Positions 5,237-55,076 of a stretch of 60,094 bases of DNA are shown in pieces (the first letter of the stretch is position 1; each line of letters opens with the position of its first letter). Position numbers and translations under genes: made by a program. The stretch comes from Candidatus Micrarchaeota archaeon. Its GTDB lineage: Archaea > Micrarchaeota > Micrarchaeia > Micrarchaeales > CABMGC01. Location: contig JAKASF010000003.1 of NCBI GenBank assembly GCA_021828295.1, positions 1 to 60,094 of the forward strand, written 5' to 3'. The notes under the pieces were generated by a model. It saw only the letters and a program-made list of their open reading frames with translations. It ran no database searches and was not told the origin of the DNA.

Positions 5237-6223
5237 CTATTTCCTTCTCAGGAATGCACCCGCCTTCGCGTCGCCGTACAGCCATATTACGGTCCCGACC
5301 ACTAGCAGGACGGTCCCGCCCCACCAGTATTCGGAAACTCCAGGAGCGCCCACCTCTCCATATACCCAACCCAGAAGCCCGATGACAATTAGCGCTATCC
5401 CAAGATACACAGCGCCGCTGGCTCCCTTCTGCTTGAAGGTGCCACCTTTAGCATCCCCGTAGATCCACATGAGCGTTCCTACGGCAATGGCAGCTACGCC
5501 TCCCCAGATATAGCTCTGTATTCCACCAGAGTAGTCACCGTAGAGCCATGCAACTGTGCCGATCAGTATCAGAGCCGTGCCTATCACCACGAGCCTTGTC
5601 AACGCCGATTTCCAAGCGAACAGCCCGTAGAGGGCGCCAAGGATTATCAACACAATAAGCACAGATGACGCAAGCTGCGCTGTCGAATTGCCGTTCGAGT
5701 AGTAGGCTCCCGTGCTGTTATACGCGATTGTGCTGCTGGGCTGTATCGAAGTGGAAGCTACGCTTGTGGTCTGCTGCGCTGTCGTTGTCTGGTTTGCAGA
5801 GCCTACCGTTGTGGTCTGGGCCGTGGTCGTTGGGGCCAGCACCGTCAGCACAAAGTTAGAGTTGCTTGTTGACGGATCATCTCCGGTCGCAGCGAGCGTA
5901 ACGTTGTACGTGCCCGCCGGTGTCGTCGATGACGCAGATATGCTCATCGTTCCCGAATAAGGAGGATCACCTGAAGGATTGCTCAAGCTCACCATTATTC
6001 CATGGCTCGCCAGCTGGTTGTTGTTCACAACGCTGAGCGTTGTGCCCCACGTACTTCCACTAGCAAGATTGACCGTATACGAGACGGAGGTGCTGTTGCC
6101 GTTCATCATGCTTCTGCTGTAAGAGCCCAGCGATATGCTGGAGGTGCCGTACCCGTAAGCAAAGACGCCGTTCGCCATCGCAAGCAGCGCCGCGATTGCC
6201 AAAACTGCTCCCAGCTTTCCCAT
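5237..6223 (-). CDS. surface protein: signal peptide, Ig-like ectodomain, Thr-rich linker, C-terminal array of TM hairpins with W[LIV]YG[DE] repeats
   Basis: Start chosen at MGKLGAVLAIAALLAMANGVFA (ATG 6223, GGGAGGT 5 nt upstream). PAGTYNVTLAATG resembles surface-domain motifs. Linker is APTTTAQTTTVGSANQTTTAQQTT. Four repeats: VAWLYGDYSGG, LMWIYGDAKGG, LGWVYGEVGAPG, VIWLYGDAKAG. Confidence 0.7.
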   Translation of the reverse strand: MGKLGAVLAIAALLAMANGVFAYGYGTSSISLGSYSRSMMNGNSTSVSYTVNLASGSTWGTTLSVVNNNQLASHGIMVSLSNPSGDPPYSGTMSISASSTTPAGTYNVTLAATGDDPSTSNSNFVLTVLAPTTTAQTTTVGSANQTTTAQQTTSVASTSIQPSSTIAYNSTGAYYSNGNSTAQLASSVLIVLIILGALYGLFAWKSALTRLVVIGTALILIGTVAWLYGDYSGGIQSYIWGGVAAIAVGTLMWIYGDAKGGTFKQKGASGAVYLGIALIVIGLLGWVYGEVGAPGVSEYWWGGTVLLVVGTVIWLYGDAKAGAFLRRK

Positions 6224-15160: not shown

Positions 15161-15218
15161 TAAGTATAGGATATCCTATACGTTTATATATCTGAAGAGA
15201 CCAAATACGATTGATAAC

Positions 15219-28094: not shown

Positions 28095-28210
28095 TGTCAA
28101 ACGGCCATAGGAGCGGGGTAACACCCGAACCCTTTCCGAACTCGGAAGTTAAGACCGCTCACGACGCGAAATACTGCACTTCGTGCGGGAAAGCGCGTTG
28201 CTGTTTGGCA
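28095..28210 (+). rRNA. rrf: 5S ribosomal RNA (ends approximate, plus or minus 3 nt)
   Basis: Terminal helix TGTCAAACGGC / GCTGTTTGGCA. Internal sequence CCATAGGAGCGGGGTAACACCCGAACCCTTTCCGAACTCGGAAGTTAAG matches the conserved archaeal 5S loop B/C region. T-rich TATA-like GTTTTTAAC lies about 25 nt upstream. Confidence 0.8.
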
Positions 28211-40671: not shown

Positions 40672-41835
40672 CTACTTCTTGACCTTTGCCTCCTTTCTCA
40701 GAGCCTCTACCTTGTCCGTCTTCTCCCAGCTGAACTCCGGTCCCACCCTTCCGAAGTGGCCGTACGCTGCAGTCTTCCTGAATATCGGCCTGCGCAGGTC
40801 CAGCTGCTTTATTATCGCTCCCGGTCTCATGTCAAAGTTCTTTTCCACTATCGCAGTCAGCTTCTCGTCGCTTATCTTGCCAGTTCCCAGTGTGTTTACG
40901 TAGAAGGACACGGGCTTGGCTACGCCTATTGCATATGCGATCTGCACCTCGCACCTGTCCGCGAGGCCGGCGGACACTACGTTCTTGGCTATGTAGCGCG
41001 CGTAATATGCTCCTGACCTGTCGACCTTCGTCGGGTCCTTCCCGCTGAAGCACCCCCCGCCCGACTTGCCTATGCTTCCGTAGCCGTCAACTACCGTCTT
41101 CCTGCCAGTAAGCCCCGAATCCGCGAGCGTTCCTCCTATCGTGAACTTGCCCGTTCCGTTGACTATGAACCTGGTGTTCTTGTCGAGCAGTTTCTTCGGA
41201 ATGACCTGCTTGATCACCTTGTCGATCACATCCCTTCGCACCTGCTCTATGCTAGTTCCGTTTCCGTGCTGCGCCGCTATTATGACCGTATCTACCCTCT
41301 TCGGCTTGCCGTTCACGTACTCTACCGTTACCTGCGACTTCCCATCGGGCCTGAGATACGGCAGTACGCCCTTCTTCCTGCACTCCGTAAGGCGCATGAC
41401 GAGCTTGTGCGAGATCATCGTAGGAAGAGGCATTAGCTCAGGAGTCTCGCAGCACGCGTATCCGAAGACGAACCCCTGGTCTCCTGCTCCTATGTCTAGC
41501 CCTTTCTTCTCGTCAACGCCAAGCGCTATGTCTGGTGATTGTTCCTCTATCGAGGTCACGACCCCGCATGTGTTCCAGTCGAGGCCGTCCTTCGCGTTGT
41601 CGAGGCCTATCTCCTTGAGCGCGTTCCTGGCTATCTGCGGTATGTTCACATATGCGTGCGTGGTTATCTGGCCGGTCACCACGACCATGCCCTGCATTAT
41701 CAACGTCTCGCAGTCCACGTGCGCTCCCGGGTCCCTGGTTATTATCGCATCAAGCACCGAGTCGGACACGATGTCGGCCACCTTGTCCGGGTGCCCCTCT
41801 GTCACGCTCTCCGCAGCTATAAGGTATTTTTCCAT
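40672..41835 (-). CDS. metK: S-adenosylmethionine synthetase, bacterial/eukaryotic MetK type
   Basis: 387 aa. [23 protein letters not shown] and [19 protein letters not shown] are MetK motifs, not those of the archaeal MAT family. Confidence 0.9.
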
Positions 41836-41844
41836 CCAATCTCC

Positions 41845-42804
41845 TCATGTTATGTCGAGAGCGGCGAGCATCACAGGCAGTATTATCGTCGCGTCCCCGT
41901 CAATAGTAACGTACTTTGCCTTCTCCTTCACCTTGCCCCACGATACGGCTTCGGTGAGCCTCGCGCCGGACAGGCTGCCGTCGAACTGCGTGGCTGTGGT
42001 TATGTACACTGCATAGTCGAGCCCGCCCTTGAACTGGTTCCACCATATGACATGATGCTTGCTTATTCCCCCGCCGATCATCAGCGCGCCGGTCTTCTTG
42101 TTGTCGAACGAGATGTCGCTCAGCTTGAGCTCGTCCCTTATGAGGTTGAGCTTGAAGTCGTGCGTCTGCGAGAAGATCGAGAGCTGGGTCCCGAATGCGC
42201 CGTCGAGTATGCCGGGGTTGAATATGGGTACGTTGTGCAGGTATGCCTGCCTCAGTATGGAGCCGCTGTCCTTCATCCTCTTCCCGAACTCCCAGGCCAG
42301 CTCCGATGCGCTGTACTCTTTTTTGTAGTCCTTGGATTTGTAGATGTCGTCCATTATCTCGTTGAAGTAGTTCTCCACCGCAATCCCGTACTCCTTCTGC
42401 TCTATGAAGACGTTGCCAAGCCTGTAGACCTTGTGCTTGTGCAGTGCCGCATCATCGGCGTAGAAGCTGCCGAGGTTATATCTGCCTCCATATGCGCGTG
42501 CCAGGTCGTGGTCCAGAGTGCCGCCTGTCGTAATTATCGCGTCGAAGTGCTTCACAGCCTGCGCCAGTGCGCCGCGCAGTCCCGTAGCCACTATGTCAGC
42601 GGGGAAGGAGAGGAAGTTGAACGAGCCCTTGTCCTTCAGCATCGTGCCCAGTATGCCTATCCCGTTGACCATGTGCTGGGCCGAGAAGCCTCCCATGCTT
42701 TCCATGCCATCGATGAGCTGCCTGACGCTCATCTTCTTCGAGAGCCTGAGATCCCTGACCCGCCTGCCGAGTATACGGCCTGTACCTTCCCCCATAAACA
42801 GCAT
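41845..42804 (-). CDS. dys: deoxyhypusine synthase
   Basis: Start trimmed to MLFMGEG (ATG 42804). AIITTGGTLDHDL and NVPIFNPGILDGAFG are DHS-like blocks. Confidence 0.85.
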   Translation of the reverse strand: MLFMGEGTGRILGRRVRDLRLSKKMSVRQLIDGMESMGGFSAQHMVNGIGILGTMLKDKGSFNFLSFPADIVATGLRGALAQAVKHFDAIITTGGTLDHDLARAYGGRYNLGSFYADDAALHKHKVYRLGNVFIEQKEYGIAVENYFNEIMDDIYKSKDYKKEYSASELAWEFGKRMKDSGSILRQAYLHNVPIFNPGILDGAFGTQLSIFSQTHDFKLNLIRDELKLSDISFDNKKTGALMIGGGISKHHVIWWNQFKGGLDYAVYITTATQFDGSLSGARLTEAVSWGKVKEKAKYVTIDGDATIILPVMLAALDIT

Positions 42805-42867
42805 AGAAGATTGGCCGGCAGAATATTTAAAGCCAATCTTTATAAGCAGGGCAACAAAACCACGATT
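42805..42867. promoter_or_regulatory. compact bidirectional promoter region (dys / mvk)
   Basis: 63-nt spacer with two TATA-like boxes, AATATTTAAAG (about 42821..42831) and CTTTATAAG (about 42838..42846). Each lies 20-30 nt from the respective ATG, implying leaderless or short-leader mRNAs. Confidence 0.45.
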
Positions 42868-43917
42868 ATGATAGAGACTATATTTGCTCCTTCTAGCACA
42901 AAGCTGGCCGGAGAACACACCGTTGTTCTTGGTACTGACTGTATCTCTGCAGCCGTAGACAAACCCGCCAAAACAAGAGTGGAGACCATTAGCGATTCCA
43001 AAATAAAGATTAATCTGTCTGACGAGAAGTTCAAAGCATCAAGGAGCTTCTCTTCGGAAGAGCTAACGAGCCTTTTCAGATCGTGGAAAGAGAAGAAGAG
43101 CATAGACTCGTTCATAACCGAAAACAAAGAGCTCTCAGGGACGATGCTTGCGTTTGCGCACATCGCCGCCAGGGCGAAGGTCGAGTTCGGACTTGACATC
43201 ATGGGATCCGAATTTACCTCCAGCTCAACTGTGCCTACGCAGTCGGGATGGGGCAGCAGCACCTCGATAGGCGCTTCGTTCGCAGGCGGTCTTCTCGCCC
43301 GCGCAAACACGCTTCTCAAGGACTCCGAAACCATAGACCTCATGAGGGACATGGATAGGATAACGCACAGAAATCCTAACGCTGGAGGTATCGACGTTCC
43401 TCCGCTCTTCTTCGGAGGTTATGTGTTCGGATCTCCAAAGAGAGGCTATGTTAACATCGATGTACGCACGCAGTTTAACTTTCTTGCTCCTTTCGTGGGG
43501 CGAAAACAACCCACGAGCAGCATGGTGTTTGTGGTAGACGTAAGGAAGCACACCTATCCGGAGAGCACGCGGTCCATCTGTGATTCTGTGCAACGCATCG
43601 TTGGCGAAGAGGTGGTCGCCCTGCAGGAAAGCGATGCTTCAGGACTGGGTCGCCTGATGTTCGAGAATCATCGGCTGCTTAAGGAACTCTGGGTATCGAG
43701 CGAGAAGCTGGACGAGATGGTCTCGATTGCGGAGAAGTGGGGCGCATACGGAGCGAAGCTGGTAGGAGGCGGGGGCGACGGAGCCGGCCTGATCAACTGC
43801 GATCCAGAACTCAATAGCACAATGATCCAAATGATGAGGCGCTCCGGATTCAGCTGCGAACAGATTGAAATAACTGACATTGGTGTCAAGAGGCAGCTCG
43901 AAGCAATAATCAGGTAA
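42868..43917 (+). CDS. mvk: GHMP kinase, mevalonate kinase-like
   Basis: This is the C-terminal 349 aa of the artefactual 792-aa track ORF. FAPSSTKLAGEHTVV, GHMP motif SGWGSSTSIGASFAGGL and GAKLVGGGGDGAGL. Confidence 0.8.
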   Translation: MIETIFAPSSTKLAGEHTVVLGTDCISAAVDKPAKTRVETISDSKIKINLSDEKFKASRSFSSEELTSLFRSWKEKKSIDSFITENKELSGTMLAFAHIAARAKVEFGLDIMGSEFTSSSTVPTQSGWGSSTSIGASFAGGLLARANTLLKDSETIDLMRDMDRITHRNPNAGGIDVPPLFFGGYVFGSPKRGYVNIDVRTQFNFLAPFVGRKQPTSSMVFVVDVRKHTYPESTRSICDSVQRIVGEEVVALQESDASGLGRLMFENHRLLKELWVSSEKLDEMVSIAEKWGAYGAKLVGGGGDGAGLINCDPELNSTMIQMMRRSGFSCEQIEITDIGVKRQLEAIIR

Positions 43918-45895: not shown

Positions 45896-46525
45896 CTATC
45901 TCTCCAAACGCTTGAAAAGCCTGTAGTACTCGTCCATGTAGAAAGAGTGCGCCCTCATGGCAGCCGCAAGAACAGGCCTCATCATCTCTGCAAGGAAGAG
46001 CTGTTCCGGAGGGCTGTTGCTTATGAAGGGCTTCGCTTGAAGCATAGGCCATTCCGCCGAGTAATACTTCATCTTGCCCTCCTGAAAACCCCTATACGCG
46101 CGAACTAGCACCTTCCTGGCAAGCTCCTGCGCCTCTTCCTCCCAGGGGCTGAGGGGCCCGTGGTTGTTGAGCCCGTTCAACTCATCAGGGCCTAAATAAA
46201 ACCTGTCAACCCTGTTGATCGCAGCCGCCAGCTCCCTCAGCAGCAATCCAGCCTTGAAGATGCTTATGCTTTCGTCCTCCACCCCTGAGTTGAACCTCTT
46301 CAGCAACTTGCTGAATTCATCCTCCCGCCTTGAACTCATACAGCTTTCCAGCATTTCCTCAAGCAGCGAGCCAAATGAGGTGAAAGACGCGATGCCGCCA
46401 TCCTGGTACGTGTCTGCTTCGAGAACGCAGCGCTCTACCTCGCGCGCCATCCGCTCGACTTCCACTTTCTGCTTTTCCTGTGCTTCAGGTTTCTTTCCTG
46501 TCCCTATTTTTTCGAGATTTGTCAT
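45896..46525 (-). CDS. hypothetical protein (third gene of unknown operon)
   Basis: Start trimmed to MTNLEKIG (ATG 46525), 1 nt after the stop of the upstream gene. 209 aa, no recognisable family. Confidence 0.55.
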   Translation of the reverse strand: MTNLEKIGTGKKPEAQEKQKVEVERMAREVERCVLEADTYQDGGIASFTSFGSLLEEMLESCMSSRREDEFSKLLKRFNSGVEDESISIFKAGLLLRELAAAINRVDRFYLGPDELNGLNNHGPLSPWEEEAQELARKVLVRAYRGFQEGKMKYYSAEWPMLQAKPFISNSPPEQLFLAEMMRPVLAAAMRAHSFYMDEYYRLFKRLER

Positions 46526-46526
46526 C

Positions 46527-47078
46527 TTACCACGGCCAGCGTCTATCTCTCTGCGCGTTTCGAAGGCTCGCCGCCAATGCGGCCTCTGCCAGCTGCACGT
46601 TGGCCTCCTGCTCTTGTAACTCTCTTCCCAGTGCAGCAATCTTCTTGCGAAGCCCGATCAAAGCATCTTTCTCCCCGAAAGTTTGCAGAAATTTGATTCT
46701 CTCCTTCAGCATCCTTTCCTGGCGGTCATCGAACTCGCCTACGGCACCATCTATGATTATAGCCGAAACCGCCCTCGCCTCTTCCCTCAAAAAGCTATCG
46801 ATCTTCTCGTCGTCGGCTAACAACTCCCTGGCCTTGGCTACGACGCCTCTGTGTGTCACCCCATTCTCGGCGAACTCGCTAGCATCGTAATAGTGCGTCT
46901 TTTCCAACCAGGTTATATACCTCGCGACATACGCCACAAGCGACTCTCTGTCTAACTTATCTTTGTACTCCACTGCGTGAGCAAGATGGTCACGCACTAT
47001 GTGGAAGGCGTAGTAATCGACAGTTCCGGACTTCGGTTCCTTCAGAACGGCTCCATTCGCTCGATTTGTTTTTTCCAT
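46527..47078 (-). CDS. hypothetical protein (second gene of unknown operon)
   Basis: 183 aa. Helical and acidic with a C-terminal coiled-coil-like segment. Contains VRDHLAH (an Rx4H pattern, weak evidence). No family recognised. Confidence 0.55.
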   Translation of the reverse strand: MEKTNRANGAVLKEPKSGTVDYYAFHIVRDHLAHAVEYKDKLDRESLVAYVARYITWLEKTHYYDASEFAENGVTHRGVVAKARELLADDEKIDSFLREEARAVSAIIIDGAVGEFDDRQERMLKERIKFLQTFGEKDALIGLRKKIAALGRELQEQEANVQLAEAALAASLRNAQRDRRWPW

Positions 47079-47083
47079 TTACG

Positions 47084-47497
47084 TCACCTAAATACGCGTT
47101 TCAGCGCAGCTTTCGCCTCCTCTACCTCTGCCTGATGCGTCTTGTAGTAATCGGCTATCGCCCCATCTGCTATCCTCTCAAGTTTGCGCTGAGCCCCTAT
47201 TGCAGCGTCTAACGCCTCTTCATTGTCATCCGCAGCGCTCGTGCTGCCTGCTGCAGTTCTGGACCTGTGATCTCCTAGAAGCTCGCCTGTCGAGTAATAC
47301 ACTGCGAAAGTCGGTGTCTCTATAGCGCCGGTAAACTCAAGCTCTGTTAGCCCCAAATTGTCCTTCTTTCTGGCGAACCTGGACATCGTTTCAAACAGCT
47401 CGCCCCCGTGCCTCTCCCACCTCAGGATCTGGTCCAGCGTCACCCCTTTGGATTGCGCCTCAGAGATTTTCTGTTCCTCGGACTCCTTTCTCTCCAT
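47084..47497 (-). CDS. hypothetical protein (first gene of unknown operon)
   Basis: 137 aa from ATG 47497 (MERKESEEQ); TTG 47527 is the alternative. No family recognised. Confidence 0.5.
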   Translation of the reverse strand: MERKESEEQKISEAQSKGVTLDQILRWERHGGELFETMSRFARKKDNLGLTELEFTGAIETPTFAVYYSTGELLGDHRSRTAAGSTSAADDNEEALDAAIGAQRKLERIADGAIADYYKTHQAEVEEAKAALKRVFR

Positions 47498-47549
47498 GCT
47501 TCCGCCAAGTATGCCTAGGCGCCTCAAGATATTTATACTTTACGTTTAA

Positions 47550-47570
47550 TTTACGCTAACTTAGCGTAAA
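47550..47570. promoter_or_regulatory. perfect 10-1-10 palindrome TTTACGCTAA-c-TTAGCGTAAA, candidate operator
   Basis: Read directly. Located between TATA-like ATTTATAC (47531..47538, serving the minus-strand operon) and TATATAAAG (47578..47586, serving the NrtR-like gene). An extra TTTACG half-site lies at 47539..47544. Confidence 0.6.
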
Positions 47571-47606
47571 TAATACATATATAAAGATTCGCGTTAGAAA
47601 CGTATC

Positions 47607-48236
47607 ATGCCAGCTGATTACGAGACGGCGCGCGTGGCCGTGGACCCTGTGGTGTTTACCGTTGCTGGGAAGGAGCTGCTGGTGCTGCTCAACACACGCG
47701 AGAAGGCCCCGTTTGCAGGAAGGCACGAGCTTCCCGGGGGCCTTCTGCTCAAAGGAGAAGAGCCCGAGGCGGAGCTGGAGAGGAAGCTCAGGCGTCTGTT
47801 CAACAACAGGAACGTGTACTTCACCCAATTCAGGACTTTTTATGAGTCTAGCAGAGACCCGAGGATGCGCACAGTCTCGATGGGCTACCTGGCACTCGTG
47901 CCCCAAGAGATGGTAAGCGATAGAAGCGTGTGGTTTTCAGCCTCTAAACTGCCCCCTCTCGCCTTCGATCATGCCGCTATAATAGGCGAGGCCCGCTCCT
48001 ACCTGAAGAAGAACATAAGCGCTCTTATAGCAAGGCAGTTGCTCCCTGCCAGATTTCCGCTGAATCAGCTCCAGCAAGTCTACGAAGCTATAGAAGGAAT
48101 AAGGTACGACAACCGCAACTTCAGGAAGAAGATGCTGCACGAAGGGATAGTCGAGGCTACGAGCGAGCTCATGTCCGGAAGTTCGCACAGGCCGCCAAGG
48201 CTGTACAAGTTCAAAGCACAAGTAAGGAAAAGCTGA
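47607..48236 (+). CDS. NrtR-like regulator (degenerate Nudix domain plus C-terminal winged helix)
   Basis: 209 aa. The Nudix-box region GGLLLKGEEPEAELERKLRRLF lacks the REx2EE glutamates. The C-terminal FDHAAIIGEARSYLKK, FPLNQLQQVYEAIEG, NFRKKML and RPPRLYKF are typical of NrtR proteins. Confidence 0.7.
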   Translation: MPADYETARVAVDPVVFTVAGKELLVLLNTREKAPFAGRHELPGGLLLKGEEPEAELERKLRRLFNNRNVYFTQFRTFYESSRDPRMRTVSMGYLALVPQEMVSDRSVWFSASKLPPLAFDHAAIIGEARSYLKKNISALIARQLLPARFPLNQLQQVYEAIEGIRYDNRNFRKKMLHEGIVEATSELMSGSSHRPPRLYKFKAQVRKS

Positions 48237-48241
48237 ATGTT

Positions 48242-48364
48242 CGCCGGGGTAGGGATTTGAACCCTAAATCCCGCGAGGGAACCGGTTTTCTTCGCATCAC
48301 AAGTTCAGCTCTTGAACCCTATGGATTCAAGACCGGCGCATTAACCAGATTCTGCCACCCCGGC
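48242..48364 (-). tRNA. tRNA-Ser (anticodon UGA) with canonical 37/38 intron of 38 nt (48288..48325)
   Basis: Read on the minus strand. Acceptor GCCGGGG/CCCCGGC plus G. Anticodon stem CCGGT/ACCGG with loop CTTGAA[intron]A. Long variable arm TTCCCTCGCGGGATT. T arm TAGGG-TTCAAAT-CCCTA. 123 nt in total, 85 nt when spliced. Confidence 0.85.
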
Positions 48365-48455
48365 ACGAGTAGCATTGGCAACCAAGCTTAAAATAAGTAG
48401 GCTAGGGCAAGCTTTATTATCAACCTGCCCCAATTCCAATCTGTTCGCTGATCCA

Positions 48456-54099: not shown

Positions 54100-54166
54100 G
54101 GGGAGGCCGTTAGCCGAGGGTAAAGCCGCGTTCTCAAACGCTAGCATTTGCTAGCAAATGCATGCA
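54100..54166 (+). repeat. 67-nt imperfect direct repeat, copy 1
   Basis: Ungapped alignment with 57904..57970 gives about 54/67 identical bases, for example GGGGAGGCCGT.AGCC.AGG.TAAAGC....TTCTCAAACGCTAG. Hand-counted. Confidence 0.75.
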
Positions 54167-54548
54167 AAGTCATTATCAACCAGACACTCTCAGGAGGCTA
54201 GCGGGCTTTGAGTGAGGAGTCCGTTTACTAGTAAACTATATCAAGCACATGTAAACACTATATCATTAGGCAACGAAAGACGAATCTGAAGGCATATCTG
54301 GGCGCGTTTGTTTGCTCAATATATATTGTTGTATATCATGCTAATTTTACATTCTGATGTTGTTGCTATAAAGCGTGCAACATGCTATGCGACAAAAATA
54401 TGTGCATTATCCTGCCCTAGATTTCATTATTGTTTAATTGAACCTCGAGGTCCATCATTTTGCTTTTATTCTCTTTCGTCAACGTTTTTCGAGGGGAAAG
54501 TATCATAACCTTTTCCCATGTCACTCGTACTTGACTGAGAGGGTAATT

Positions 54549-55076
54549 GTGGCTGCACTGAAGGTCGCTCCGGTCAGAACTACCGAAGCGCAGGATTTTG
54601 CGACACTGAGGCGAGTCGAGACGACTGCAGTCACACTAGACAAAGCGAGCGAGAAGGATTTGGATATTGTGCGAATGATTAACTCATCGCTAAAAAACGA
54701 GAAGCACACAGGTTTCATAGATGAGGACGATATGCAGGAGGTCTACAGGTGGGGCACCATCTTCATCATAAAAGTATATGGAAAGAACGCCGGGACCATC
54801 TCTTTCAGGCCTGACAGAGGAGACGATAATACCGCTCTTCTCCGTAATCTGGCGATATTGCCCAGATATCAGGGACGAGGCGTTGGAACCGCGGCTGTGA
54901 ATCTAATACATGACACGGTGAAAGAGCTGGGTTTCGAGAAAGCCAAGGGGAGGATACGACCTGAAAACGATGAGGTACTCCATATATATAAGAAAAAAGG
55001 ATTTGAGGTAGTCGGTAAGGACAATTGTTTTGGAGATGGAGTGGAGCGATTGATTATTGAAAAGAGACTCCGCTGA
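54549..55076 (+). CDS. GNAT-family N-acetyltransferase
   Basis: Acetyl-CoA motif LAILPRYQGRGVGTAAV and HIYKKKGFEVV. The start is uncertain; GTG 54549 was chosen and the track ORF opens at 54438. Confidence 0.7.
   Translation: MAALKVAPVRTTEAQDFATLRRVETTAVTLDKASEKDLDIVRMINSSLKNEKHTGFIDEDDMQEVYRWGTIFIIKVYGKNAGTISFRPDRGDDNTALLRNLAILPRYQGRGVGTAAVNLIHDTVKELGFEKAKGRIRPENDEVLHIYKKKGFEVVGKDNCFGDGVERLIIEKRLR

Follow-up and report, generated by a model that had tools for sequence, protein, structure and literature searches.

The question raised by this locus is what a transcription factor of the NrtR family, whose members have been described as bacterial controllers of NAD synthesis (PMC2330246), could be doing in the genome of an acid-mine-drainage archaeon that has not been cultured, where its gene stands back to back with three genes of no recognised family. 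The initial annotation had reported three minus-strand ORFs and a divergent gene, and all of these coordinates are confirmed in the window, i.e. the whole stretch of 60,094 nucleotides that was analysed. Within the operon, here called A-B-C, the gaps are 5 nt (A/B) and 1 nt (B/C), and a divergent promoter region of 109 bp separates gene A from the regulator gene. The features of the locus are as follows.

47607..48236, plus strand: regulator gene, ORF of 209 aa; the codon model chooses the annotated frame
47578..47586, plus strand: TATA box of the regulator gene, TATATAAAG, with its centre about 25 nt upstream of the start codon (ATG, 47607)
47549..47571, no strand: candidate NrtR operator, perfect 23-bp palindrome ATTTACGCTAA-C-TTAGCGTAAAT with 11-nt arms
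47539..47544, plus strand: extra TTTACG half-site, repeating the left palindrome arm in direct orientation
47530..47537, minus strand: TATA box of the A-B-C operon, TATAAATA read on the minus strand
47084..47497, minus strand: gene A, 137 aa with pI 5.2; homologue searches negative
46527..47078, minus strand: gene B, 183 aa with pI 6.2; homologue searches negative
45896..46525, minus strand: gene C, 209 aa with pI 5.5; belongs to a very small family that has not been described

The flanks of this 2.4-kb locus are of a housekeeping kind (mevalonate pathway, tRNA-Ser, ABC transporter). Homologues of nadA, nadE or nadM were not found in the 60-kb window, arabinose genes are missing from the 20-kb neighbourhood, and no sugar-utilisation genes flank the locus. 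An integrated element beside the tRNA was considered and rejected, because there is no integrase, the region comprises only 2.4 kb and its base composition is close to that of the surroundings. Readthrough from A-B-C into the neighbouring isopentenyl phosphate kinase gene is unlikely, as the two are separated by a 74-nt gap with a TTAAATA box of its own about 30 nt before the kinase ATG. Among 185,579 species genomes scanned, the best identity to this kinase was 44%, over a short segment only, and the sole near-full-length match reached 37%. A locus orthologous to the whole divergon was not found in the collections searched. Sequencing runs which contain 7-10% of the sequence words of the locus represent the same strain at low coverage, together with tRNA cross-matches, and not diverged relatives.

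By its sequence, the divergent gene encodes a true member of the NrtR family of regulators. Residues ~144-202 match the NrtR_WHD profile (Pfam PF21906) with 75.8 bits (cut-off 27, E 2.9e-21), which bears out the NrtR-type C-terminal winged helix proposed in the initial annotation, and the Pfam profile AraR_C is matched as well (36.8 bits, E 4.6e-9). The Nudix-like effector domain comprises approximately residues 9-118 and scores just over the cut-off for NUDIX (PF00293; 22.4 against 21.1 bits, E 1.3e-4). As had been noticed before, its Nudix box is degenerate: it reads G-x5-E-x7-RKLRRL and the REx2EE glutamates are absent, so that the box appears dead and the domain is predicted to be non-catalytic. 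In the PDB sequence searches the best match is BtAraR (5bs6; E 3.4e-28, residues 9-205), and SoNrtR (3gz5) is matched with E 3.1e-16. The score against NCBIfam NF050029, the equivalog model of the ADP-ribose-responsive repressor NtrR, is 85.6 bits and thus below its cut-off of 400 bits. The regulator itself is ordinary for the NrtR family.

An alignment mapped onto the published numbering (PMC4666351) was used to compare the ligand-contacting residues. R31, R83 and H122 of the regulator correspond to Arg34, Arg86 and His131 of BtAraR, the sugar-binding triad of AraR, while R86 aligns with SoNrtR Arg98, a residue in contact with ADP-ribose (PMC4666351). AraR has a Gly at this position, and its nucleotide cleft is closed by Gly89 plus Tyr5 (PMC4666351). 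All four of these ribose- and phosphate-contacting residues (R31, R83, R86, H122) are invariant across the seven closest relatives of the regulator. The nearest metagenomic relatives share 37-43% identity with it and adjoin nadA, nadE or nadM-Nudix; among the loci of at least 6 kb that were obtained for the 25 best NrtR relatives, 11 out of 12 have one of these genes next door. Because the closest relatives adjoin NAD-biosynthesis genes and share the ligand-contacting residues, it is reasonable to suppose that the effector is an NAD metabolite. Two features, Arg86 at the Gly89 position and the lack of arabinose genes nearby, would also place the regulator outside the AraR subfamily.

Operators of the NrtR family are 21-bp palindromes with a GT-N7-AC core, and divergons of nrtR and its target are the norm (PMC2330246). 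A perfect 21-bp palindrome had been described here before, and TTTACGCTAA-C-TTAGCGTAAA at 47550-47570 (centre 47560) is indeed exact; its full extent, however, is 23 bp (47549-47571). The initial annotation also considered it to be of NrtR-operator size, and a 21-bp site in a divergon fits the published family (PMC2330246). Markov simulations in which spacer variants were counted give a chance expectation of 0.26 perfect palindromes with arms of at least 10 nt per 60-kb window, and 20% of the simulations contain at least one such palindrome anywhere in the window. A palindrome with 11-nt arms inside the 109-bp divergent promoter region is beyond chance. Its core is GC-N7-GC and agrees with the family GT-N7-AC in the outer G and C only. 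NrtR relatives have imperfect 21-bp palindromes (8-9 out of 10 arm pairs) located 31-42 nt upstream of the start codons. The 60-kb window contains no second copy; the next-best 21-mer, at 47539, has six mismatches, is the only other site within that limit and overlaps the palindrome itself.

Both TATA-like boxes and the additional TTTACG half-site listed in the initial annotation are present (47578-47586, 47537-47530 and 47539-47544). The palindrome is about 7-9 nt away from the nrtR TATA box and about 12-13 nt from that of the operon, and the half-site overlies the place where the BRE of the A-B-C promoter is expected. Archaeal transcription starts about 26 nt downstream of the TATA box centre. 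Since the TATA centre lies only about 25 nt before the regulator ATG, the nrtR transcript is probably leaderless. For A-B-C the same geometry predicts a transcription start near 47508, which leaves about 10 nt in front of the gene A start codon (ATG, 47497). A sigma-70-like bacterial promoter site was not found.

Are the three genes of the operon real? The codon model prefers the annotated frame by margins of 0.26 (A), 0.17 (B) and 0.18 (C), compared to a leave-one-out range of 0.02-0.45 for 29 out of 30 training genes of the window, and the ORFs antisense to A and B score as antisense. The strand-specific purine skew at A-B-C fits coding on the minus strand, and gene B has a Shine-Dalgarno sequence, AGGTGA (47089..47084, minus strand), which overlaps the stop codon of gene A. 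Together with the conserved family and the confident fold of C these features indicate that A, B and C are real coding genes. The short gaps and the overlap of the gene B Shine-Dalgarno sequence with the gene A stop suggest co-translation of A-B-C.

The initial annotation could not place any of these proteins in a known family, and no family match exists for A, B or C in Pfam, NCBIfam, PADLOC and PHROG (none below E 0.2 in the latter two), although C has a few distant relatives. Searches among 1.84 billion representative proteins gave only a self-hit for A and no homologue for B, a word-indexed search of 5.8 billion proteins found for B nothing but the query, and PDB sequence searches with A and B found nothing significant. 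The possibility that A, B and C are paralogues of one another was rejected. They had been called acidic and helix-rich; the isoelectric points make them only mildly acidic, and a helical structure is supported for C alone, by an AlphaFold2 model. The doubts already raised about a HEPN assignment of B were justified, as no HEPN profile in Pfam, NCBIfam or PADLOC matches it and its Rx4H motif (R29-x4-H34) is N-terminal, whereas the Rx4-6H motif of HEPN proteins belongs to the C-terminal helix of a four-helix bundle. In three metatranscriptomes, all of the same study, the locus has zero coverage.

C is the only one of the three for which relatives were found. Nine distant homologues (P0004-P0012; 29-44% identity) from soil and other metagenomes are present among the 1.84 billion representative proteins; the word-indexed search returned only the query itself, and a C-family profile search had two known members among the matches listed. 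They share an all-alpha domain of about 170 aa with K91, L96, W128, A136, A157 and F167 invariant, and an NGLxNHxPxxPWE loop is conserved between C and its closer family members. AlphaFold and Foldseek had been recommended for these proteins and were run on C: the AlphaFold2 model is confident (pLDDT 88.7, pTM 0.84) and all-alpha with seven helices, and in the PDB and the viral structures of BFVD nothing resembles it at E<0.05, designed helical bundles appearing only at E>0.05. The C-family profile has no match in the PDB, and the family alignment found nothing in metagenomes and viral contigs.

Four out of the nine relatives carry an extra N-terminal alpha/beta domain of approximately 190 aa. 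A profile of this fused family found nothing significant in the PDB, and Foldseek of the fused relative P0004 against the PDB gave only designed helical bundles at E>0.05. B and C as a split form of these fused proteins were rejected, because B is unlike their N-terminal domain and C has its own copy of the inter-domain helix. The relatives of C occur on archaeal and on bacterial-looking contigs with differing neighbouring genes. Small partner genes vary, and were rejected as homologues of A or B; two of the loci contain a divergent gene for an AbrB/MazE-domain protein. Neither the C relatives nor their neighbours match PADLOC or PHROG below E 0.2.

An NrtR gene or genes similar to A or B were not found near any of the nine C relatives (the DNA was searched for eight, whereas P0011 was covered by a precomputed Pfam gene list), and conversely none of 80 loci with NrtR relatives encodes a homologue of A, B or C. 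The initial annotation had suggested that the three proteins may form an NAD/ADP-ribose-linked module. With A and B lacking homologues, and the trio neither conserved nor ever beside NrtR homologues, the reading as a recurrent module fails on present data. We regard as unlikely a bolder reading, in which A-B-C represent a novel module coupled to ADP-ribose/NAD turnover via a horizontally acquired NrtR and C founds a new all-alpha fold family. Such a module would respond to NAD cleavage, e.g. during ADP-ribosylation stress or virus-triggered NAD depletion.

Most likely, an NrtR repressor/operator divergon has been recruited to the lineage-specific cargo A-B-C. A dimer of the regulator would bind the 21/23-bp palindrome between two back-to-back archaeal TATA/BRE promoters. 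Dimers of this family cover about 25 bp of DNA (PMC4666351), and a bound dimer would thus abut both BRE elements, while the operon BRE would come to lie under a second dimer recruited to the extra half-site. Recruitment of TFB/TBP would thereby be hindered at both promoters, so that the regulator would repress its own gene as well as A-B-C, until an ADP-ribose-like breakdown product of NAD binds to the Nudix domain and releases the repressor. The products appear to be small, soluble and particular to this lineage, and show no catalytic signature; we tentatively picture them as one helical complex without enzymatic activity, the abundance of which tracks NAD turnover. The analysis shows the structure of the genes, the family and conserved ligand residues of the regulator, the palindrome, the geometry of the promoters, the predicted fold of C and the absence of homologues for A and B; from these we infer the binding of NrtR to the palindrome, the sign of the regulation, the effector, and the function or complex of A, B and C; a putative connection of A-B-C to NAD/ADP-ribose is plausible through the regulator and the position of the genes alone. 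Taken as a whole, this explanation, with repressor, shared operator, ADP-ribose-like release and a co-translated helical complex, seems to us somewhat more probable than improbable.

The same arrangement could be read with the opposite sign. An NrtR-like protein bound upstream of the BREs might recruit TFB/TBP to one or both promoters and act as an activator or dual regulator. Archaeal activators such as Ptr2 bind upstream of the BRE, and the palindrome at 47549-47571 lies upstream of this element at both promoters; nevertheless we consider activation unlikely, since a footprint of 25 bp would touch both BREs, the half-site (47539-47544) and the operon BRE overlap, and the characterised NrtR-family proteins cited in the literature are repressors (PMC2330246, PMC4666351). 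A somewhat less improbable alternative concerns the ligand: the regulator could sense a compound unrelated to NAD, e.g. a pentose or ribose-5-phosphate, in the manner of the AraR/XylR branch, which would leave the operon unconnected to NAD/ADP-ribose. BtAraR is its best PDB match (E 3.4e-28 vs 3.1e-16 for SoNrtR), the NrtR family has been co-opted repeatedly for other pathways (PMC2330246) and NAD genes are absent from the window. This has to be weighed against R86 as the counterpart of SoNrtR Arg98, the ADP-ribose contact, where AraR has a Gly and a filled nucleotide cleft, against the nadA, nadE or nadM genes adjoining the closest metagenomic relatives, and against the lack of flanking sugar-utilisation genes.

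That A and/or B are spurious or very young ORFs, leaving only C and the regulator as real genes, is quite unlikely. Their lack of homologues among 1.84 billion proteins (for B also among 5.8 billion), the zero metatranscriptome coverage and the frequency of long antisense ORFs in this window of 55% GC could be taken that way. However, their codon-model margins are typical of real genes whereas the antisense ORFs score as antisense, the spacing is operon-like with a canonical AGGTGA before B, and the lineage is very isolated, as judged from the isopentenyl phosphate kinase (at most 44% identity), so that missing homologues are to be expected for small proteins. Even less probable, in our opinion, is a defence, stress or toxin-antitoxin-like cassette induced by the cleavage of NAD into ADP-ribose, for instance upon virus attack. 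A variable, lineage-specific cargo with no housekeeping homologues, a regulator of the ADP-ribose-sensing type, and the differing small partners and AbrB/MazE-domain divergent genes of the C relatives would suit such a cassette, but PADLOC and PHROG match neither A, B, C nor the C relatives, nuclease, NADase or toxin motifs were not found, viral contigs contain no relatives, the flanks are housekeeping genes and the Rx4H of B is misplaced for HEPN.

If the palindrome is bound and the response to ADP-ribose is true, the repressor divergon would be a compact case of a bacterial one-component regulator acting on the archaeal basal transcription machinery, and induction by an NAD breakdown product would be the first functional handle on three orphan proteins, one of which, C, has a confident predicted fold with no solved relative. 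What we describe is a bacterial-type NrtR in an archaeal genome with archaeal-type promoters, apparently tied to undescribed cargo; should A-B-C encode no more than proteins particular to this lineage under a local repressor, there is nothing unusual about the locus.

Several known systems can be compared to it. Like NrtR of Shewanella oneidensis (3GZ5/3GZ6; PMC2330246), the regulator combines a Nudix-like effector domain with the NrtR winged helix, has a dead or weakened Nudix box, retains the ribose and phosphate contacts including the Arg98 equivalent, and is separated from its putative target operon by a 21-bp palindrome with an odd central base. Unlike in Shewanella, the genes belong to an archaeon, their promoters are of the TATA/BRE type and the nrtR transcript is predicted to be leaderless; that the candidate operator is placed upstream of the BRE and TATA elements of both promoters and not over them, a position also typical of archaeal activators, is an observation against the explanation preferred above. 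The putative targets are three uncharacterised genes instead of NAD genes, and the absence of any NAD gene from the 60-kb window as well as the zero coverage in the three metatranscriptomes also count against that explanation. The operator core is GC-N7-GC, not GT-N7-AC, and the NCBIfam score 85.6 vs 400 bits; this core, and the fact that the best solved sequence relative is the arabinose sensor AraR, are again points on the opposing side.

With AraR of Bacteroides thetaiotaomicron (5BS6; PMC4666351) the regulator shares the triad (R31/R83/H122) and, if the palindrome is its operator, the operator length of 21 bp. It differs by the Arg at AraR Gly89, the change which closes the nucleotide cleft in AraR, and by the absence of arabinose genes nearby, and whereas AraR operators are tandem semi-palindromes (PMC4666351), a single perfect palindrome is found here. 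The C-family relatives P0004-P0012 have the ~170-aa domain in common with C but, unlike C, no NrtR neighbour, and four are fused. Divergons of nrtR with nrtX-nrtY, whose targets are uncharacterised, have been listed for Actinobacteria, Proteus and Hahella (PMC2330246, Table 1), and our literature search found no later description of nrtX/nrtY. There, as here, a short uncharacterised operon is divergent from an NrtR gene with a predicted operator in between, a likeness of layout.

Gene A and the divergent regulator gene are separated by an intergenic region of 109 bp, and the genes of the operon A-B-C follow each other with gaps of 5 nt (A-B) and 1 nt (B-C). Coordinates, lengths and strands of the four ORFs were all confirmed as they had been given in the initial annotation.

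47497..47084, minus strand, gene A, 137 aa
47078..46527, minus strand, gene B, 183 aa
46525..45896, minus strand, gene C, 209 aa
47607..48236, plus strand, regulator gene (nrtR-like), 209 aa
47550-47570, intergenic region, 21-bp palindrome TTTACGCTAA-C-TTAGCGTAAA
47537-47530, read on the minus strand, TATA-like box TATAAATA on the operon side
47578-47586, TATA-like box TATATAAAG on the regulator side
47539-47544, extra TTTACG half-site

In archaea the centre of the TATA box lies about 26 nt upstream of the transcription start. According to this promoter geometry the nrtR-like mRNA should start at or adjacent to the ATG and thus be leaderless, and the operon mRNA should start near 47508, about 10 nt ahead of the ATG of A. 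A sigma-70-like promoter was not found in the intergenic region. The AGGTGA sequence in front of B shares bases with the stop codon of A.

That the divergent gene encodes an NrtR-like regulator is borne out by the Pfam NrtR_WHD profile (75.8 bits) and by full-length PDB alignments with Bacteroides thetaiotaomicron AraR (BtAraR; 3.4e-28) and Shewanella oneidensis NrtR (SoNrtR; 3.1e-16). The Pfam NUDIX match is barely over threshold (22.4 bits), and the NCBIfam ADP-ribose-responsive repressor score of 85.6 bits is far under the 400-bit equivalog cut-off. The Nudix box indeed lacks the catalytic glutamates, as described initially, unlike most of the closest metagenomic relatives, in which REx2EE is intact. 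When the PDB alignments were mapped onto the residue numbers of PMC4666351, R31, R83 and H122 corresponded to the sugar-binding Arg34, Arg86 and His131 of AraR, and R86 to Arg98 of SoNrtR, a residue that forms a hydrogen bond with ADP-ribose and for which AraR has Gly (PMC4666351). Regulator relatives with 27-43% identity are encoded in 80 metagenome loci. Among the 25 best, twelve loci are at least 6 kb long, and in eleven of these a nadA, nadE or nadM-Nudix gene adjoins the relative. Such neighbours are present at the loci of the closest relatives, with 37-43% identity (L023, L024, L025, L027, L028, L029, L030, L032, L036, L040 and L045). Because of this linkage, and because R31, R83, R86 and H122 are unchanged in 7/7 closest relatives, the regulator is placed among the NAD-linked members of the NrtR family. 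Our best inference for its effector is an ADP-ribose-like ligand.

The palindrome noticed initially is present, and its perfect symmetry widens to 23 bp (47549-47571). In Markov simulations, the number of perfect palindromes with arms of 10 nt or longer was 0.26 per simulated window (summed over spacer variants), and only 20% of the simulations contained one or more anywhere in 60 kb. The actual site has 11-nt arms and lies within the one divergent promoter region adjoining a palindrome-binding regulator. NrtR sites are 21-bp palindromes with a GT-N7-AC core, often located in 'nrtR<#>target' divergons, some of which have targets of unknown function, nrtX-nrtY (Rodionov et al., PMC2330246). The window palindrome agrees with them in length, symmetry and position, whereas its core is GC-N7-GC. 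Several regulator relatives are preceded by imperfect 21-bp palindromes with differing sequences of their own (8-9 of 10 arm pairs), located 31-42 nt ahead of the start codon; among these, the L036 site, TTAGCGTCAC-A-GTGACTCTAA, shows the canonical core, unlike the window site. Apart from an overlapping half-site repeat, no second copy of the palindrome within 6 mismatches was found elsewhere in the window. Four other perfect palindromes may be operators of other regulators: TTATAAAGTAATTACTTTATAA (1540-1561; 22 bp, 11-nt arms), as strong as the NrtR site, and those at 6026-6044, 15164-15181 and 54144-54161, with 9-nt arms each.

As an AraR dimer covers 25 bp (PMC4666351), a footprint of this size, at 47548-47572, would border on the BRE at either promoter, and the extra half-site overlaps the BRE of the operon, which makes repression of both transcription units from the candidate operator the most likely mode of regulation. 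Activation by the regulator is possible, because the palindrome is located upstream of the TATA boxes. The regulatory half of the locus is, with good support, a new case of a familiar arrangement, an NrtR divergon whose candidate operator is a 21-bp palindrome; its unusual aspect is the archaeal host with TATA/BRE promoters.

The cargo genes A, B and C are real. A codon model trained on 30 window genes (leave-one-out margins of real genes mostly 0.12-0.45) favoured the annotated frame of each (margins 0.26, 0.17 and 0.18, respectively) and scored the long overlapping ORFs as antisense, and the purine skew is consistent with minus-strand coding. None of the three could be placed in a known family initially, and none matched a family in Pfam, NCBIfam, PADLOC or PHROG. 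When 1.84 billion representative proteins were searched in full by HMMER with the concatenated A, B and C, only self-hits were returned for A and B, and nine relatives for C (29-44% identity). A and B are therefore orphan genes and C is a member of a tiny undescribed family.

Neither the trio nor its linkage to NrtR recurs in the loci compared. Each of the nine C relatives lies on a contig with varied neighbours and no NrtR gene; A or B homologues were absent from the eight contigs searched as DNA, and the ninth, P0011, was covered by its precomputed Pfam gene list. No A-, B- or C-like product is encoded at any of the 80 loci with NrtR relatives, and nadA, nadE and nadM are absent from the window. 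The basis of a putative NAD/ADP-ribose role of A-B-C is the family of the regulator and nothing else; the comparative data give it no support.

An AlphaFold2 model of C, with the nine relatives as alignment, is confident (pLDDT 88.7, pTM 0.84) and comprises seven helices; this predicted all-alpha fold has no significant structural match in PDB or BFVD. K91, L96, W128, A136, A157 and F167 are invariant across the family and an NGLxNHxPxxPWE loop is common to its closer members, and no catalytic-like set was recognized among the conserved residues. Four relatives (L016:493-1656, L017:103-1266, L018:484-1704, L019:1186-2220) carry an extra, conserved N-terminal alpha/beta domain of about 190 aa with the motifs TTYHxYxYYGFFKP and EVLAQIP. 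This domain is dissimilar to B, and neither Pfam nor PDB, by sequence or by fold, gave a match for it. In L018 and L019 the divergent neighbour encodes a 290-aa AbrB/MazE-domain protein.

Archaeal housekeeping genes surround the locus: a mevalonate-pathway cluster, the genes of deoxyhypusine synthase, EF-1alpha and ribosomal proteins, and a tRNA-Ser(UGA) gene with a 38-nt intron (48241..48365, minus strand; Rfam and 'aragorn -i', missed by default ARAGORN), convergent with the nrtR-like gene and 5 nt beyond its stop codon. The window sequence belongs to a 221-kb contig of MAG GCA_028866735.1 and occurs in mine-drainage metagenomes, where very deep cross-matching contigs at 48240-48370 are due to this tRNA. 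Judged by sequence distance, the host lineage is very isolated: across 185,579 species genomes, relatives of isopentenyl phosphate kinase reach at most 44% identity, and that over a short segment, and the sole near-full-length match has 37%. A stand-alone 5S rRNA gene (28097..28209, plus strand; Rfam 71.5 bits) was found, and 16S or 23S rRNA was not detected within the window. The S-adenosylmethionine synthetase (40672..41835, minus strand; L001:15244-16407) has the bacterial/eukaryotic-type Pfam domains S-AdoMet_synt_N/M/C despite the archaeal contig. Long antisense ORFs are common in the window; a 792-aa mechanical ORF (41539..43917, plus strand) is mostly spurious, its 5' part overlapping the opposite-strand deoxyhypusine synthase gene, and only its last ~349 codons (42868..43917) are the called GHMP kinase. 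A possible toxin-antitoxin pair is located some 6 kb away from the locus (about 54173..54681, minus strand; L001:2398-2906): its first gene encodes 80 aa and the second, which weakly matches ParE_toxin, 86 aa. The palindrome at 54144-54161 lies just beyond this pair.
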